DNA of 64,000 bases from Gammaproteobacteria bacterium (GTDB taxonomy: Bacteria; Pseudomonadota; Gammaproteobacteria; DRLM01), in contig JAHFRV010000001.1 of the NCBI GenBank assembly GCA_023266095.1, positions 64,110 to 128,109 on the forward strand, written 5' to 3'. Shown here piece after piece: positions 31,566 through 39,299 of this stretch. A program made the position numbers and the translations under genes. The first letter of the stretch is position 1. Each line of letters opens with the position of its first letter. The notes under the pieces were generated by a model that saw only the letters and a list, made by a program, of their open reading frames with translations, made no database searches and was not told where the DNA came from.

Positions 31566-32612
31566 TCATCTATACGGCGATGGCTGCGCATACGCCATCG
31601 GGTCCAACACCAACTGATTCAGACAGGCCGCGGGCGGCGGATTCCCCAGCCAGGTCGTCCACCCCAATTGTTCGCCGCCGCCCAGGCTCAAGCCGGGCGC
31701 CTCTTCCCGTTTGAGGATCAGATTCACATCAAAGGCGAACTCATCGCCCACGTAGTTGCGCACCCAATCCTCCAGGCGCCGCAGGCCGGCGGCACCCGGC
31801 AACAGGTGCCGGTACTGCGACAGGCTCAAGGGGCCGAACACCAGGCGGAATTTATGCTGGCAACTCCATACGCTCGCGCCGACCACGGCCGATACGCCGA
31901 GCACGCCGGATTCGCCGCTGCCGGCGAGGCGCCAGCGTTGTCCCGTCTCGAGTTGCAGCCACTCGCCGACGAACTGCTCGATCGCCACTGGCAGGCGAAA
32001 GAAATCGGCGAGGATGGCGCGCAGACCCACTGCATTGCGTGCGGCACGGGCGTGCTGCCCGACGTAATACAGCTTGGCCGCATCCGGTACCGCGTCACGT
32101 CCGCGCAGCGCCTCCTGGCCCAGCCCGCACAATGCGCCGATGTACAGCACGAAACGATCTTGCTCCGGTCTATCCTGATTCACCGCCGGCTGGGCATTGG
32201 CCCAACTGCGATAGAAAAAACACAACATGCGGTGATGAAACAAATCGAGAAAGCGGGCGAAGGTGGGATCGTTGGCATTGCGCACGCGCTGCCGCACATA
32301 TTCGGTGAGGTGCACCGGCAGCGGTCCGTGCGCACCCAGCAGACCAAAGAAGTTGACCTGCAACCGCGCCGCACTGTCCTCGGTGGCCGGCTCGAAAGCA
32401 GCCAGGGTCGAGGAGGCGAAGGCCAGCGTCGGCTCCTGACCCAGCCGCAGCACATCATCCGCCGGACGCTGCGATTGTCCGAAGCGCGGACTGGCGCGGA
32501 ACAAGCACTCCACCTGGCGCAGCGCCGCGAAGAAGCCGAATTCATACGGCGTCTCGTGCAGCGCGCTCGCCAGGGCTATAGCGTCGGGCGTCGACCAATC
32601 CGTGCCGGCCAT
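31566..32612 (-). CDS. tssG: T6SS baseplate protein TssG
   Basis: 348 aa with RLQVNFFGLLGAHGPLP TssG signature. Confidence 0.9.
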   Translation of the reverse strand: MAGTDWSTPDAIALASALHETPYEFGFFAALRQVECLFRASPRFGQSQRPADDVLRLGQEPTLAFASSTLAAFEPATEDSAARLQVNFFGLLGAHGPLPVHLTEYVRQRVRNANDPTFARFLDLFHHRMLCFFYRSWANAQPAVNQDRPEQDRFVLYIGALCGLGQEALRGRDAVPDAAKLYYVGQHARAARNAVGLRAILADFFRLPVAIEQFVGEWLQLETGQRWRLAGSGESGVLGVSAVVGASVWSCQHKFRLVFGPLSLSQYRHLLPGAAGLRRLEDWVRNYVGDEFAFDVNLILKREEAPGLSLGGGEQLGWTTWLGNPPPAACLNQLVLDPMAYAQPSPYR

Positions 32613-34450
32613 CGCTTGATCTCCCCGCGTTCCATGGTTCTTAACACCGTCTCGGTGAACGAGTTGAGCGAGACATAGTGTGCGAAAAATTCTTCGAGCA
32701 CGGCACCCAGTAAAAAGGCGCCGGTCCCTTCGAAGGCCGCGTCCTCGCAGGTGAGCGTGACCTCCAGGCCGCGACCGAAGGTGATCGGCCCCGGCGTGGG
32801 TATGCGGCGGGTGACGGGACGCGTCGCCACGGAGCGCACCCCTTCCACTTGCCGGCGCACTGTGGCCTCGCCGAGATCACCGTACAACATCAACAGGTCA
32901 CGCAGCCCCGCCGCGCCCTGGCGCTGGTCGCTATCCACCAAAGACAGATAATTGAGCGATAAATGGCTGATCAAATGCCACGCGGTCTCACCCTCGGCCC
33001 GCGGCGGCACGGGCTTCGTCGGCCCGGCCACACAACGGATGGCGCGGACGGGCGCCCCGCTCTCGAGCGTGAAATCGGTCTCGGATGTGCCCAGCACCAT
33101 GTGCAAGGGCAGGTCGCGGTTGGTGCACAGGCAGGTGATCGCGAGCTGGCGCAGATCATGGCGATAAGGCGCCTGCTCCGCATCCACCAGCGCGGCGAAG
33201 ACCTCCGTCCCGATATAACTCGAACGCGCCCCGTGCAAGCGCTGGTGTTCGGACAAGCGGCGCGGTTCGCGGTGCACCGTGTAATAGGCGGGGTGATTTA
33301 GCGCATGATTCACGTCGCTGGCCGCATAAAACGGCAGGAATTCCTGCTGCTCATCGGCGCGCGTGCCTATCCCGGCCATGCCGGTGACGGCATAGACCTC
33401 GAAATCCATCGGCCGGGTCCGATCCGGTACGACGTGATACTCGGTCTCGCGCGCCGAGAGATGGATACGATCGGCGCGCTTGGGAAAGAGATTGATCACC
33501 GGGGCACAGAACAACGCGAAATTATCACGGCCGACGCGATGATCGAGACTCGCGTCGGCCTGGTCGAAAAGCACGAAGATTTCCAGGCTATCACCCCGAC
33601 ACCGCCGCAACGCCGGCGTGAGGCCGCGCAGCTCGGCGAACAGAAAACGTTCGGGAAAGGCGAAGTATTCGTACAGCAAGCGATAGCCGTGGAAAGAGCG
33701 CGGCCCGCTCGGCAACAGGGCCTCGTGCTCTTCGAAGCCCATGCGCCCCACGCCGGGTCCGGCCACCACTTCGTCGTGCCGGTCATCGGGACCGGACCGC
33801 AGCACCAGCGCCACCGTGTTGGCGAGCAGCAGTTCATAGAGCCGGCGGCGCACATCGCTGCCGCCGCAGAGGTACAAGGGCAACCGGTCCAGCGCCAACT
33901 TGTCGATACTCAGCCCCGCCGTGACCTTAAATCGGAGTCGGATGCCGGCCTTGACGGCGCGCTCGCCGAAACGATCCGTCGCGGGCAGGTTGATGGCGTT
34001 GGGGACATACTCCGCCTGCACCAATTCCAACGGCCACAGGGTGACGTCATGCGCGGTGCGGTATTCGTTGCAGGTCTGTTCGCCTTTCGTCAGTAGGCTG
34101 CGCAAGGCACTCGCCCGCGGCACGACCACCCCGCTCGCGAGGCCGCCCTCGCCGAGGTCGGGCTGAAACTGCACCACCGCCATCGAAGGCGTGGGTGCGA
34201 GAAAATGCGGATACACCATCTCCAGCAGGTGTTGGGTGAAGCGCGGAAACTCCTGATCGAGCCGCAAGTGCACCCGCGCCGCGAGGAAGGAGAATCCCTC
34301 TAGCAGCCGCTCGACATAGGGGTCGGCGCACTCCATGCCCTCCATGCCAAGACGCCCGGCGATCTTCGGAAAGGCCTTGGCGAACTCCGCGCCCATCTCG
34401 CGCATGTATTGCAGTTCGCGGTTGTAGTAATCGAGGAGACGGGGATCCAT
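32576..34450 (-). CDS. tssF: T6SS baseplate protein TssF
   Basis: 624 aa MDPRLLDYYNRELQYMREMGAEFAKAFPKIAGRLG... Confidence 0.92.
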   Translation of the reverse strand: MDPRLLDYYNRELQYMREMGAEFAKAFPKIAGRLGMEGMECADPYVERLLEGFSFLAARVHLRLDQEFPRFTQHLLEMVYPHFLAPTPSMAVVQFQPDLGEGGLASGVVVPRASALRSLLTKGEQTCNEYRTAHDVTLWPLELVQAEYVPNAINLPATDRFGERAVKAGIRLRFKVTAGLSIDKLALDRLPLYLCGGSDVRRRLYELLLANTVALVLRSGPDDRHDEVVAGPGVGRMGFEEHEALLPSGPRSFHGYRLLYEYFAFPERFLFAELRGLTPALRRCRGDSLEIFVLFDQADASLDHRVGRDNFALFCAPVINLFPKRADRIHLSARETEYHVVPDRTRPMDFEVYAVTGMAGIGTRADEQQEFLPFYAASDVNHALNHPAYYTVHREPRRLSEHQRLHGARSSYIGTEVFAALVDAEQAPYRHDLRQLAITCLCTNRDLPLHMVLGTSETDFTLESGAPVRAIRCVAGPTKPVPPRAEGETAWHLISHLSLNYLSLVDSDQRQGAAGLRDLLMLYGDLGEATVRRQVEGVRSVATRPVTRRIPTPGPITFGRGLEVTLTCEDAAFEGTGAFLLGAVLEEFFAHYVSLNSFTETVLRTMERGEIKRWPARIGRRPTL

Positions 34451-34628
34451 GGTTTTTCTCTGTGTTTGATCTCAGCCGCGGAAAAGGGTGATGTGCCGCA
34501 GTCTACAAATATTGCAGTCGCAACGTCTTTGCAATGGATGCATTATCAAGAACCGGCCTTCCTTATTTAAATTTAAGTGCGGTGTCCGGAAGTCAAAGTC
34601 CCCGGTTACCCGATTAAAATCTCGCTGC

Positions 34629-34994
34629 TCAAGGCAAGAGCTTTTTTTCACCATCGCTGAATACCGCGTCGATGGAGTGAAGACCGCCCGGAACAGTGAG
34701 AACCAACGTCCCTTCACCAATATTTTTTGCCGGCAGCGCTACAGCACACTTTTCCTTGATGCCACAGCGTATGAATTGCAACTTTTGGCGCCCATCGCTC
34801 AGCCCGATATTTGCCCCTGGTGAATAATGAACAGACTCCAGCATTGGACGGTAGGTTACTTTAATAGCCCCATCCTTCTCCTGCACAACAGAGAGAATTT
34901 CAACGTCTGATAGTTTGTATTGATCCATGGCTTGCCCACAAGAAGAAATGGCCATCATCGAGCTTATCACTATAATGATGGAGAGCCTGTTCAT
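34629..34994 (-). CDS. Small lipoprotein (121 aa), candidate periplasmic immunity protein
   Basis: Signal peptide + lipobox ISSCG; start overlaps the stop of the upstream candidate effector (ATGA); AT-richer. Confidence 0.5.
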   Translation of the reverse strand: MNRLSIIIVISSMMAISSCGQAMDQYKLSDVEILSVVQEKDGAIKVTYRPMLESVHYSPGANIGLSDGRQKLQFIRCGIKEKCAVALPAKNIGEGTLVLTVPGGLHSIDAVFSDGEKKLLP

Positions 34995-35488
34995 TTGGCA
35001 CCCGCCTTTTTCTTCATAAAGCTCGATGCCGGGTTTTGCTGAAGTGGCTTAGGGCTGAAGAGAGTGGTTGGCTGCTGCTTCTCAAGCAGAAGGATGTTTC
35101 TACCCAACTCACGAGGGGTTTCGAATCCGCCATAGTCGTCCGCATCGACATCCTCTCCCACCACCTCTTCGACGACTTCGCTTGCCCATGACGCGCAGGT
35201 GTTGGTGTAGCGCCAAGCGACGTTAGCCTGCATAAGCGCATTGAAGTGCCTCGCCTGCGCATCTGAAAGCCCATACTATCGGCTGGCGACGGCCTTCTGA
35301 GCAGCCTCCATTCCAATTCTGATATCCGACTTGTCGCCGTTATCAAGCACGTTCGGATGAGCGTCTGGCCAGAGCCCATAGACCGTTGTCTTTCCATCGT
35401 GGGTAATCGCTAGCCATGCATGTCCAGCCGTAATATCCTTATCGTTCCCGGCATCATTACTATGTATTCCAAAAACCATATTCCCCAT
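34991..35488 (-). pseudogene. Candidate T6SS effector (~165 codons) interrupted by an in-frame amber (TAG) codon after codon 70; His-before-Cys permuted papain-like (NlpC/P60-LRAT-type) motifs
   Basis: ORF track gives two same-frame ORFs (35276..35488 and 34991..35233) separated by one TAG; strong SD (AAAGGGGGTGAAGA) before the first ATG; motifs GHAWLAI and YTNTCASWA. Confidence 0.45.
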
Positions 35489-35528
35489 TCTTCACCCCCT
35501 TTGTTGATGCCATGGGCACGCATCAAAG

Positions 35529-36032
35529 CTAACCCGCGCGCTCGCTAATGGTGACTTTGCCCTCTTCGAGGTCCAGTTCGGTACGCAGGTACAGGCGCAG
35601 GGGGGTCGGCTGGGCCCACAACTCGCCCTCGATTTCGAACATCAGCGCGTTGTGGCTCTGGCTACGGGGGTCGGGGGCGTGGCGTATGCGCACGCTGTTA
35701 CGCAGGATGCGCGGCTCGTAATCCCACAAGGCCTGCCGCAAAATGCGCTCTACCATCAGCGGATCGATATTCGAGACCACCCGCCCCGAGATGTCCGGCA
35801 GGCCGTAGTTGAGTACCGAATGGCTAACCAGGGGGTAGGCCTCCAGATCTTCGACGGCGCTCAAATTGATGGAATTGAACAGCCAGGAGATATCACGCAG
35901 CACCGCGGCACGGAACTTGTGCAGGGAGAGCACGCGTTTGTCGCGCGCCTCTTGGCGGGTATCGCGCTCCTCATCGGTCAGGCGATCGAGCAGCGAGGGC
36001 TGGAGGCGTTCTTTTGATGTGAGTTCGGGCAT
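35529..36032 (-). CDS. tssE: T6SS baseplate protein TssE (gp25-like)
   Basis: 167 aa with LLDRLTDE signature. Confidence 0.9.
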   Translation of the reverse strand: MPELTSKERLQPSLLDRLTDEERDTRQEARDKRVLSLHKFRAAVLRDISWLFNSINLSAVEDLEAYPLVSHSVLNYGLPDISGRVVSNIDPLMVERILRQALWDYEPRILRNSVRIRHAPDPRSQSHNALMFEIEGELWAQPTPLRLYLRTELDLEEGKVTISERAG

Positions 36033-36160
36033 GTTGATCCGCGTTGATGTTGGTTTTTTAAGTTTCGCCGCTTTGCTCCGCTGGCTGTCGAGTTGGACAA
36101 TCGCGCCTCCAGCAGCGGATACTCACCCGCATCGGTGCCGAACATGCGTTGCCCCAAACC
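35957..36160. repeat. Direct repeat copy A (~204 bp, ~85% identity to copy B) spanning tssE 5' end, intergenic spacer and a residual tagJ 3' fragment
   Basis: Aligns with 37342..37546; encodes ...GEYPLLEARL tagJ-like remnant on the minus strand. Confidence 0.8.
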
Positions 36161-36311: not shown

Positions 36312-36716
36312 TCACTTTTTAACTGGCCTGCTGCCGGTGCACACGTCTCCCATGTCTATGCCATTTAGCCATTGCTCAAGAACCTTAATGCGGTCTGCCG
36401 TAAAGTCTCCCAATACTTGGCATCTGCACGTTGAATAAATCGAACCATACTCAGGGCTCGGGCCGTGAGGGTAGATTAGCTCTAATTGAGCTTCTTTGTA
36501 GGCCACCCAACTCTGTTGGGATTTTCTTAGCTTGCGAATGAATTGTTGATCATGCCTGTATTTCGAGATAAGTTGTTTGTAAATCGCAACTAACTTTGCC
36601 TCCGATGTTCTCAATTGGTTGCAGGTTGATTCTTCGGCCGTCTCGCCCGCAAAGCCAAAATAAGGATAGAAAAGTAGACTTGCGAATAACACAACACCTA
36701 TGTGAAGGGGTTTCAT
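36312..36716 (-). CDS. LprI/DUF1311-family (lysozyme-inhibitor-like) secreted protein, candidate immunity for the adjacent lysozyme effector
   Basis: Signal peptide; DUF1311 pattern C..Q..W..Y...C...C; directly downstream of the GH24 gene. Confidence 0.7.
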   Translation of the reverse strand: MKPLHIGVVLFASLLFYPYFGFAGETAEESTCNQLRTSEAKLVAIYKQLISKYRHDQQFIRKLRKSQQSWVAYKEAQLELIYPHGPSPEYGSIYSTCRCQVLGDFTADRIKVLEQWLNGIDMGDVCTGSRPVKK

Positions 36717-36725
36717 GATCTGTTC

Positions 36726-37220
36726 TCACTTGTTAAATAATTCCGTCTCTCTGCTGCGGCGCCTCGTTAGGCCAGCAAGTATTTTTCCAGAAGACTTATC
36801 GTAAAGTTTCATCTTATCTGGTACTTTCGATAGATCGAGTTTTCCATCTTTACCAGTGCAAGCGGCCAAAACGTTCGCCAGATTGCCCATCCCGACGTTG
36901 TATGTAAAAGAAACGAGGGCATCAAACTGGTTTTGTGTAAGAGTGGCCCCGAGCGCCCCCACCTTTGTATTGACTGCATCTTCTGCCGTCTTTGTATCCT
37001 TCGTTAATAGGCTATCCCCTTCGTTCTGAGTAATGCCCTTCTGAAAAATTTTCTCATTTTCTTTTCCATCGCATTTTCCCGGGTGAACCAAATGCCCCCA
37101 ACCGATGGTGCAATGACCGCCTCCATCGGTATCGTAGAGGTGGGCTTGAAAAGTCTCAAAATCTTGAATTAACTTTAGCCCCGCAGAGCCGAGGGTCATG
37201 CCTAGTGAAGTATTTGCCAT
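36726..37220 (-). CDS. GH24 phage-type lysozyme (muramidase), candidate T6SS peptidoglycan-targeting effector
   Basis: No signal peptide; LKLIQDFETFQAHLYDTDGGGHCTIGWGH (catalytic Glu/Asp/Thr spacing as in T4 lysozyme) and C-terminal RRRSRETELF. Confidence 0.8.
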   Translation of the reverse strand: MANTSLGMTLGSAGLKLIQDFETFQAHLYDTDGGGHCTIGWGHLVHPGKCDGKENEKIFQKGITQNEGDSLLTKDTKTAEDAVNTKVGALGATLTQNQFDALVSFTYNVGMGNLANVLAACTGKDGKLDLSKVPDKMKLYDKSSGKILAGLTRRRSRETELFNK

Positions 37221-37341
37221 TTAATCTTCTCCTGATTGAATGAGGTTGACCCATTACTAACGAATGGTTAGATCATTTGCAGGTGAACCTAATATTTCCC
37301 GTCTACAACAGTTGCAATGGCAGTCCTTTGGCAATGGAGCC

Positions 37342-37546
37342 GGGTATCGCGCTCCTCATCGGTCAGACGGTCGAGCAGCGAGGGCTGGAGGCGCTCTTTG
37401 GATGTAAGCTCGGGCATGACATCGATCCACCTTGGTGTTTATTAAGTTTCGTCGTCCTGCTCCGCCGGGCTGTCGAGCTGGATCAGCCGCGCTTCCAGCA
37501 ACGGATACTCACCCGTATCGGTGGCAAACATACGCTGCCCCAAACC
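37342..37546. repeat. Direct repeat copy B: intact tagJ 3' end plus a duplicated 26-codon tssE 5' fragment (MPELTSKERLQPSLLDRLTDEERDTR...) that runs into the lysozyme gene leader
   Basis: Aligns with 35957..36160; plus-strand ORFs at both loci share GIALLIGQ.VEQRGLEA. Confidence 0.8.
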
Positions 37547-38332: not shown

Positions 38333-38797
38333 CTAATCGAACAACTCCCAAAAAACATAACTGTCCCACTGAAAGGGTGGACAGGAAGCCACTAGATCCT
38401 TGTGCTGCGATATCTCAATACTCCGCCCAATCACCCGAATCGATCGAAGATGCGTCTCACAATCCCGCGACGTGGTGGGCTGGCGCTTTGAGGATTCGAT
38501 GAGAACATAACGATAGTCAGCTACCTCAACGATTCGGAAGTTCCCCGTCATGTCCCTGTGAAAATTGCATGGCCATGGAATATGCAGGTTGTAAATTTGG
38601 GTCTTGCCATCAGCAGTAGCGGCTGCAAAACAGGCTTCCCCGCGGCCCTCCAATCGTATCGAGAACTGACCTATGTTTAGCTCATCCTCTAAGTCATTTA
38701 TTTCACCCGCCGTACCACAGGATACGACGGCTAAACTAGTAATCGCGGCCATCACCAAACGCCTATGGATTTGACTCATGGCAGTTCCCAAAACCAA
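38333..38797 (-). CDS. Lipoprotein (154 aa), candidate Tai4-like immunity protein
   Basis: Signal peptide with VVSCG lipobox; 11 bp downstream of the Tae4-like gene; AT-richer. Confidence 0.5.
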   Translation of the reverse strand: MVLGTAMSQIHRRLVMAAITSLAVVSCGTAGEINDLEDELNIGQFSIRLEGRGEACFAAATADGKTQIYNLHIPWPCNFHRDMTGNFRIVEVADYRYVLIESSKRQPTTSRDCETHLRSIRVIGRSIEISQHKDLVASCPPFQWDSYVFWELFD

Positions 38798-38808
38798 ACC
38801 TGGGAAGA

Positions 38809-39207
38809 TTAGTTTGCCGGATCAGAAAACGTTTTTGTTAATCCTCGGTTCCATAAATCGATGTGATCGCCAGTTCTCGCGCGCTCGCCTGATCGCGCAA
38901 AGCAGTCTTTGAAGAAAATCATGCCAGCCTTGCGACTTAAAGCAATTTTGGCCTTGGCTCCCTCTGCATATATCATGGGCCGACCAAGACGATTTTTCCA
39001 AAGCCAGCTGGCCAACGACTCGGCTCCCCGAGCATGGCCATGACTGCATTTTGGCTCTGAATAAGTGTTTTTATTCACTTTGATTGTCTGCTCCGCGTTG
39101 AGGGCTATGCTCATACGAATTGAGCATTGGTTCTCCCAGTTGTCGTCGCACGGAAAAGATTCTGTTGGGTAGTTTGACCACAAATTAATGAAGCTGGGTT
39201 TTGACAT
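38809..39207 (-). CDS. tae4: Tae4-family T6SS peptidoglycan amidase effector (papain-like Cys-His)
   Basis: MSKPSFINLW..., ...NQCSIRMS..., ...GDHIDLWNRG... match the Tae4 N-terminus, catalytic Cys and His motifs; start set at Met with SD spacing 9. Confidence 0.7.
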   Translation of the reverse strand: MSKPSFINLWSNYPTESFPCDDNWENQCSIRMSIALNAEQTIKVNKNTYSEPKCSHGHARGAESLASWLWKNRLGRPMIYAEGAKAKIALSRKAGMIFFKDCFARSGERARTGDHIDLWNRGLTKTFSDPAN

Positions 39208-39299
39208 GTGACTCATCCTTCCCTGGGAAGAGGGCGATTTTAGCACTCCCACAAACCGCAGGATTTCCCTGGGGAGCGGCCGCAGCGCCGCTTCATAAC

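Follow-up and report, generated by a model that had tools for sequence, protein, structure and literature searches.

A predicted type VI secretion effector gene, probably inactivated recently by a single amber codon, next to a retained lipoprotein gene with a putative immunity function

What is an open reading frame (ORF) that runs for 70 codons, meets an in-frame TAG and then stays open for 94 more codons? The question is raised by a locus between tssE and tssF of a type VI secretion system (T6SS) cluster in contig JAHFRV010000001.1 of a Gammaproteobacteria bacterium (assembly GCA_023266095.1); the stretch analysed, referred to here as the window, comprises 64,000 nucleotides (positions 64,110 to 128,109 of the contig). 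The original prediction offered three readings: a toxin inactivated recently while its immunity gene was kept, an amber-suppressed gene and a split gene. The first of these is favoured by the intact single-ORF relatives of the gene and by the lack of any other decay in it: the locus is likely to represent a recently inactivated, periplasm-acting T6SS effector whose immunity gene has been retained.

The effector and lipoprotein are encoded on the minus strand, between tssE and tssF, and all the elements predicted there (a Shine-Dalgarno sequence, 70 codons, the TAG, 94 codons and a lipoprotein gene overlapping the effector stop) are present:

35489 to 35502, minus strand: Shine-Dalgarno region AAAGGGGGTGAAGA, read from the sequence and abutting the effector ATG at 35488.
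35279 to 35488, minus strand: N-terminal part of the effector pseudogene, codons 1-70 (from translation and homologues), holding the conserved His9, Gly22-His23 (His codon 35422-35420), Asp42 and Asp55 (conservation over 248 domain sequences).
35276 to 35278, minus strand (CTA on the plus strand): in-frame TAG, codon 71 (from a codon alignment with six relatives).
34991 to 35275, minus strand: C-terminal part of the effector pseudogene, codons 72-165 and TGA (from translation and homologues), holding the invariant Cys98 (codon 35197-35195) and an acidic loop, GEDVDADD...ETPRELG (from the alignment).
34629 to 34994, minus strand: intact lipoprotein of 121 amino acids (aa), the predicted cognate immunity protein (from the ORF list and homologous lipoprotein genes).

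The Shine-Dalgarno region begins 26 nt past the tssE stop codon. Codons 72-165 (35275-34994) continue in the frame of codons 1-70 and end with the TGA at 34993-34991, which shares an ATGA overlap with the start of the 121-aa lipoprotein ORF; the end of the lipoprotein gene is separated from the start of tssF (34450) by 178 nt. The two motifs noticed beforehand are found at residues 22-28 (GHAWLAI) and 94-102 (YTNTCASWA), with the TAG between the putative catalytic His and Cys. In public protein sets (NCBI, ENA) the 80-aa fragment Met86-Lys165 (35233-34991) is listed as a separate protein, and the 70-aa N-terminal fragment is recorded only in Logan gene calls. Because the two pieces are recorded separately, the existing protein records hide a single interrupted gene.

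With the stop masked, the conceptual protein retrieved 147 protein matches (E down to 3e-87, best identity 83%), all unnamed and without a Pfam domain. Nearly all are 155-180 aa long, encoded by one ORF each and spanning 92-100% of the read-through query. Because both halves together match single-ORF proteins of ~160 aa, the interrupted ORF is not a chance feature, and the relatives show single intact ORFs rather than two conserved small genes. The column of the TAG is occupied by Tyr, and by Phe in a few members, in alignments of 27 and 95 members, none of which has a stop at this position. The corresponding codon in six relatives is TAT, TAC or TTT, and therefore a single transversion made the stop.

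In respect to the closest relative (83% identity), the proportion of nonsynonymous differences (pN) is 0.11 for the N-terminal and 0.09 for the C-terminal part, and the proportion of synonymous differences (pS) is 0.60 and 0.89, respectively, values near or beyond saturation. Purifying selection thus acted on both halves up to the very recent past. Of the columns conserved to at least 90%, the window copy departs from only one (L6F), compared with a family mean of 1.17, and because the rest of the gene is undecayed, the mutation is very recent. The stop stands at codon 71 of 165 and the invariant Cys98 is downstream of it, so the lost part is essential; the toxin ends at residue 70 and therefore cannot contain the predicted nucleophile. 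No true orthologue is available for comparison: the only close host relative (locus L072) has a different gene pair in the slot, and the closest protein to the read-through product found anywhere is the one with 83% identity. A version of this allele lacking the stop was also sought in JGI metagenomes by exact-pattern scanning, with no match. What happened here is most likely a recent pseudogenisation of the ordinary kind; a variant in the population or in the assembly is less likely.

The sequence conservation and the predicted structure both indicate what the stop has removed. Among 248 domain sequences (31-100% identical to P0001, the closest intact member), the Cys is conserved in 100% and the Gly-His pair in 99%, and the corresponding figure for Asp55, Asp42 and His9 (numbered as in the window copy) is 92-98%; in 109 multi-domain members this G, H and C are the only invariant residues. 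The AlphaFold2 model of P0001 (pLDDT 88, pTM 0.84) consists of five strands followed by helices. In this model His22 starts strand 2 and Cys97 is located at the N-terminus of the helix 97-109 (corresponding to His23 and Cys98 of the window copy), and these two residues probably form the catalytic dyad. The order of a His on an N-terminal strand followed by a Cys at a helix N-terminus is, in this model, that of a circularly permuted enzyme.

A search of the model against the PDB with Foldseek placed TseH (6v98) first (probability 0.90, E 0.027, TM 0.44), with a runner-up probability of 0.06; the weaker matches are also papain-like enzymes (SseI, transglutaminase, CLN5, vasohibin, and arylamine N-acyltransferase). 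Against viral structures, the polyproteins of kobuvirus, salivirus, parechovirus, and other picornaviruses lead (best probability 0.94-0.99), the match being reported at the level of the polyprotein only. The 2A proteins of the matched genera are of the H-box/NC type and have relatives in the LRAT/H-rev107 family. Lower ranks are held by a protein annotated as lecithin retinol acyltransferase from Catovirus (0.30) and by one from a phage annotated as permuted papain-like amidase, YaeF/YiiX C92 (0.16). The likeness to circularly permuted NlpC/P60-LRAT hydrolases, initially read from the two motifs, thus finds support in the structure comparison and in the near-invariant His and Cys, with a permuted papain-like hydrolase core predicted and the match remote. 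No match to the Pfam families LRAT, C92, C97, DUF4105 or DUF6695 was obtained with 95 members at E up to 10. These proteins therefore form a family of their own, which structure prediction and the His-then-Cys signature assign to the permuted NlpC/P60 fold class.

The acidic loop (GEDVDADDxxGxETPRELG, residues 111-128) is conserved in the family and is possibly involved in metal or substrate binding. The only matches in a PDB sequence profile search, designed ankyrin repeats (E 0.045 or worse), were rejected as chance matches to this loop. Pfam and NCBIfam scans with the read-through protein and with the lipoprotein gave sub-threshold noise only, and the matches to DUF6950 (E 0.03), LPD15, and blaBIM were rejected as such.

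The lipoprotein is full length. Its N-terminus, MNRLSIIIVISSMMAISSCG, is a signal peptide with a lipobox (ISSC, lipobox Cys19), and the protein has a LESVHYSPG motif and a Cys77/Cys83 pair. A protein homologue search with it returned only itself, and its relatives came from tblastn of the fetched loci, where a homologue adjoins the toxin gene in about half of the cases, either downstream or, in forms with an XVIPCD domain, upstream. At most of the other loci a different small ORF, again encoding a signal peptide and a lipobox, adjoins the toxin gene. Among 26 aligned partners the lipobox Cys never varies, and a LESLYYSPG-like motif and the Cys pair (RCxIxxxC) are nearly invariant; the conserved pair suggests a periplasmic disulfide. 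The partner thus carries an export signal and co-varies with the effector. It is 59% identical (in the multiple alignment) to its counterpart at L069, the locus of the closest intact homologue, and the two toxins are 83% identical; immunity proteins usually diverge faster. Because the partner is a lipoprotein with a conserved Cys pair, the toxin is expected to act in the periplasm.

The toxin domain is widespread. An exhaustive profile search collected 532 clusters at 50% identity, 319 of them at E 1e-10 or better, and a literature search found no paper on this toxin family. The members occur in three architectures. The first comprises stand-alone proteins of ~160 aa, including the window copy, and the second proteins of ~290-330 aa with a C-terminal extension. 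The XVIPCD domain, which serves as secretion signal in the bacteria-killing type IV secretion system (T4SS) of the Xanthomonadales type (PMC6536674), was detected in 11 of the 109 multi-domain members; among the tested loci it is confirmed in Stenotrophomonas (E 5e-27), weak in Hydrogenophaga and Ottowia, and undetected in the tested Xanthomonas and Neisseria proteins. In the third architecture the domain forms the C-terminus of longer proteins: Rhs-repeat proteins (e.g. of 1616, 1648, and 2308 aa), one eCIS_core member (extracellular contractile injection system, eCIS), giant PKD/fn3 surface proteins, two proteins with LysM, and one with PG_binding_1.

The genomic surroundings vary as well. 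The window copy lies in a T6SS cargo position, between tssE and tssF, and the closest intact homologue, with its 121-aa partner, between tssG and clpV of a similarly organised cluster (L069). In five genomes, those of Undibacterium, a Thiobacillaceae metagenome-assembled genome (MAG), Polaromonas, and two Psychrobacter (loci L012, L016, L026, L034, and L066), vgrG is directly upstream of the stand-alone gene. Elsewhere the pair is an orphan between housekeeping genes. The many members of this last kind, far from T6SS genes (e.g. L008 and L011), could speak for a housekeeping role of the pair, as an envelope enzyme and its lipoprotein regulator, placed in the cluster by chance, and the toxin activity of the family is indeed a prediction. 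Such a pair would not be expected to be fused to XVIPCD, Rhs, and eCIS delivery modules or to adjoin vgrG, to sit in low-GC islands that differ among close strains, or to lose the effector repeatedly while the partner gene persists. The fusions, islands, and repeated decay are hallmarks of polymorphic toxins, and we regard the housekeeping explanation as very improbable.

Loss of the effector with retention of the immunity gene recurs in the family. At L064 (9379-9915) the first 45 effector codons are fused in frame to the lipoprotein gene, and at L065 (9489-10038) and L057 (1661-2343) only the C-terminal part of the effector is left beside an intact lipoprotein gene. Truncated family products (P0111 and P0088) also exist.

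The window pair is one of several in its cluster, in which every intergenic slot is occupied by a low-GC cargo pair. The flanking genes, the island and the slots are as follows:

35529 to 36032, minus strand: tssE, gp25-like baseplate wedge, upstream flank, with a TAG stop (Pfam GPW_gp25, E 4e-19).
32576 to 34450, minus strand: tssF, downstream flank, with a TAG stop (ORF list; PF05947, T6SS_TssF, on the identical gene in L001).
34451 to 35528, minus strand: low-GC cargo island occupying the tssE-tssF intergenic slot (from composition and from the different pair in the L072 slot), with the amber-interrupted effector and the lipoprotein.
38333 to 39252: hcp-tagJ slot, Tae4-like amidase and a 154-aa partner.
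36312 to 37220: tagJ-tssE slot, GH24 phage-type lysozyme and LprI inhibitor.
30760 to 31491: tssG-clpV slot, Tse2-like ADP-ribosyltransferase and Tsi2-like partner (weak Tsi2 match).

The three other cargo pairs all appear intact. The 1.08-kb tssE-tssF island has a GC content of 48-55%, compared with 62-65% in the flanking core genes (core GC at third codon positions ~0.79). The effector is 83% identical to that of L069, and the core proteins are less similar (TssE 45%, TssF 54%, and TssC 76%). That the effector is closer to L069 than the core proteins are indicates transfer of the cassette, and the low GC agrees with horizontal transfer. In the close host relative L072 (93-95% DNA identity in tagJ and tssE), tagJ and tssE are directly adjacent, the homology to the window is lost shortly after the tssE stop codon, and the slot is taken by another pair. 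This pair (938-1875) consists of a 161-aa lipoprotein-like protein and a 136-aa protein with SRHMQHKGVD and HGDHLH motifs, which has the look of a LAS-type metallopeptidase. No repeats were found flanking the tssE-tssF island, and a promoter and terminator scan of it gave nothing above background except a weak hairpin, resembling a terminator, where the lipoprotein gene ends.

A direct duplication of ~200 bp (88-92% identity, 35956-36160 and 37341-37546) flanks the neighbouring island of GH24 lysozyme and LprI. The duplicated segment comprises the 3' end of tagJ, the spacer and codons 1-26 of tssE, and gives rise to a 42-aa pseudo-start ORF at 37417-37289. Because L072 has a single, undisrupted tagJ-tssE junction, this island was inserted with duplication of the junction. 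After clpV, the window contains a 174-aa ORF without a family match (27269-27793) and a large gene for a DUF7948/SBBP/DUF11 surface protein (22066-26100).

Three other accounts of the TAG have to be weighed against inactivation. If a suppressor tRNA or programmed read-through carried translation past it, some full-length toxin would still be made; the frame open for 94 codons past the TAG with all the conserved residues kept, and the retained immunity gene with its start overlapping the effector stop, are what such a gene would show, but a very recent mutation accounts equally well for the open frame. Of 27 window genes inspected, 7 end in TAG, among them tssE, tssF, tssM, and tssK, and the lengths of the tssE and tssF products differ by no more than 1-3 residues from those of their L069 homologues; judged by these window genes, the codon is not reassigned in the host genome. 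The 64-kb window contains no tRNA gene, no homologue has a stop at the TAG column, and the base after the stop is T, which in E. coli favours efficient termination. Suppression therefore has a very small probability in our estimate, and the same slight chance is given to low or conditional read-through, by a suppressor tRNA elsewhere or by codon context, that would yield a trickle of toxin under full immunity; if true, the effector would be dosage-limited or could be re-armed. Even less probable is a split gene, whose two products, a 70-aa piece with the His and an 80-aa piece with the Cys that starts anew at Met86, would assemble into an active enzyme. The ATG at 35233 does open an 80-aa ORF that is publicly listed as a protein, and Met86 is the first in-frame restart, but no Shine-Dalgarno sequence is found within 5-10 nt of it, the nearest AGG ending 15 nt upstream. 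The break falls within predicted strand 5 (residues 67-73), taking out most of this strand and helix 1, and parts the His-bearing beta-sheet from the Cys-bearing helix in the model. No relative has a two-gene arrangement, and the short relatives look like truncations or contig ends.

The third account holds that the gene is really intact, the TAG being an error of sequencing or of the consensus, or else one allele, rare or prevalent, in a mixed population binned as one genome. It is the most serious of the alternatives, though still rather unlikely. The gene is flawless apart from the TAG, as it would look after an error, and the source appears to be metagenomic (the number of the Logan contig is ~260,000, and the nearest PurH relatives, at 89%, are MAGs). 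On the other hand, consensus substitution errors are rare, and the same base is present in two assemblies, the 129-kb NCBI/ENA contig and a Logan contig of run SRR14366785, which matches the window at 100% identity along 15.5 kb, TAG included. The independent Logan assembly excludes an assembler artefact; it does not exclude polymorphism among reads, because both contigs are probably from the same sample. The other decayed effector copies that adjoin intact immunity genes also argue against this account, as real inactivation is common in the family.

A recent inactivation can be put into the following scheme. The locus would be a horizontally acquired effector-immunity cassette, placed in the tssE-tssF slot of an H1-type T6SS cluster of an uncultured bacterium. 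An intact copy would be loaded on the VgrG/Hcp spike, the presumed delivery route, and injected into the periplasm of a neighbour. There it would hydrolyse an envelope substrate, at an amide bond of peptidoglycan or at an acyl ester of a phospholipid, with the His23/Cys98 dyad and an active site completed by a conserved acidic residue (Asp42 or Asp55) or by His9. Kin would be protected by the membrane-anchored periplasmic lipoprotein from the adjacent gene. The change from TAY to TAG at codon 71 would halt translation after four of the five predicted beta-strands and before the Cys helix. No active toxin would then be made and immunity would stay intact, and a cell of this kind would no longer fire the toxin but should still resist it.

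Several observations weigh against parts of this scheme. No vgrG is present beside the cluster in the window, so the carrier is not in view, and the toxicity, secretion, and activity of the family members are predicted from sequence. The fold matches are remote (TM 0.44 to TseH, every Foldseek E above 0.001). The family aligned with hhalign against E. coli YiiX, and the alignment of 248 domain sequences against YiiX and human PLAAT3 (sequence checked against PDB 4FA0), gave no significant result (probability below 1%), these single-sequence templates making a weak test; the best local alignments, although not significant, match the conserved Cys of the family to the catalytic one in both PLAAT3 and YiiX. 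The source is probably a MAG, and the TAG, seen in assemblies, could be one allele of a mixed population. Peptidoglycan and lipid are about equally likely as the substrate. Pointing to peptidoglycan are the fusions to LysM and PG_binding_1, the Tae4 and GH24 lysozyme cargo in the window cluster and an M23 peptidase next to the L069 pair. Pointing to a lipid ester are Tox-Act1 and TseH, reported as phospholipases (PMC12994826), and the lipid-binding pockets of permuted NlpC/P60 enzymes (PMC12994826, PMC3142127).

A cell that has lost the effector and kept the immunity gene would be a defensive "cheater", a routine case, and an unnamed widespread family that has no Pfam or NCBIfam model is a more useful outcome than the amber copy itself. 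The family would provide a compact toxin domain of ~150 aa used in four delivery routes: as T6SS cargo, in the XVIPCD-dependent T4SS, on Rhs tips and in eCIS. It may supply a fold and a predicted catalytic dyad for some T4SS effectors of "unknown function". As intact homologues occur in culturable hosts (Rhodocyclus, Motiliproteus, Stenotrophomonas, and Xanthomonas), the prediction is directly testable.

Among known systems, TseH/TsiH of Vibrio cholerae gives the best PDB fold match of the window family (6v98, probability 0.90). TseH is described as an NlpC/P60 enzyme of the permuted type, with Pfam DUF6695 present in its homologues (PMC12994826, its S3B Table). The two families show no detectable sequence relationship (Foldseek identity 11%, TM 0.44), and they also differ in the His-to-Cys spacing, which is 75 residues in the window family. 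DUF6695 was not matched in the 95 members at E up to 10, and 6v98 is missing from the PDB sequence profile search. None of eleven genera that have members of the family is listed with a TseH-type homologue in the supplementary tables of PMC12994826, a survey of Salmonella effectors, where Lysobacter appears only for DUF4105. Judged by these comparisons, the window family is separate from the TseH family. With Tox-Act1 (a Salmonella SPI-6 T6SS effector), LRAT/PLAAT and YaeF/YiiX (C92) it would have in common the permuted topology and a Cys at the N-terminus of a helix. Those proteins act on lipids as phospholipases or acyltransferases (PMC12994826, PMC3142127), whereas the window family may target peptidoglycan.

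The effectors and immunity proteins of the Xanthomonadales T4SS (X-Tfe/X-Tfi) resemble the relatives from Stenotrophomonas, Hydrogenophaga, and Ottowia, in which the toxin domain is followed by XVIPCD and the homologous lipoprotein is encoded upstream, a position typical of X-Tfi (PMC6536674). The window protein differs from X-Tfe in being the stand-alone T6SS form: it is devoid of XVIPCD and ends 20-30 residues past the toxin domain, with no Pfam match. Tae1/Tse1 and Tae4 are likewise small Cys-His periplasmic hydrolase effectors with periplasmic immunity proteins, and a Tae4 homologue sits two slots from the window pair in the same cluster. The Tae proteins are canonical NlpC/P60 enzymes, with the Cys before the His, whereas the window family is predicted to be permuted and has no Tae Pfam match. 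It would be one more clade of permuted NlpC/P60 toxins, next to TseH and Tox-Act1, whose substrates (peptidoglycan or phospholipid) are debated.

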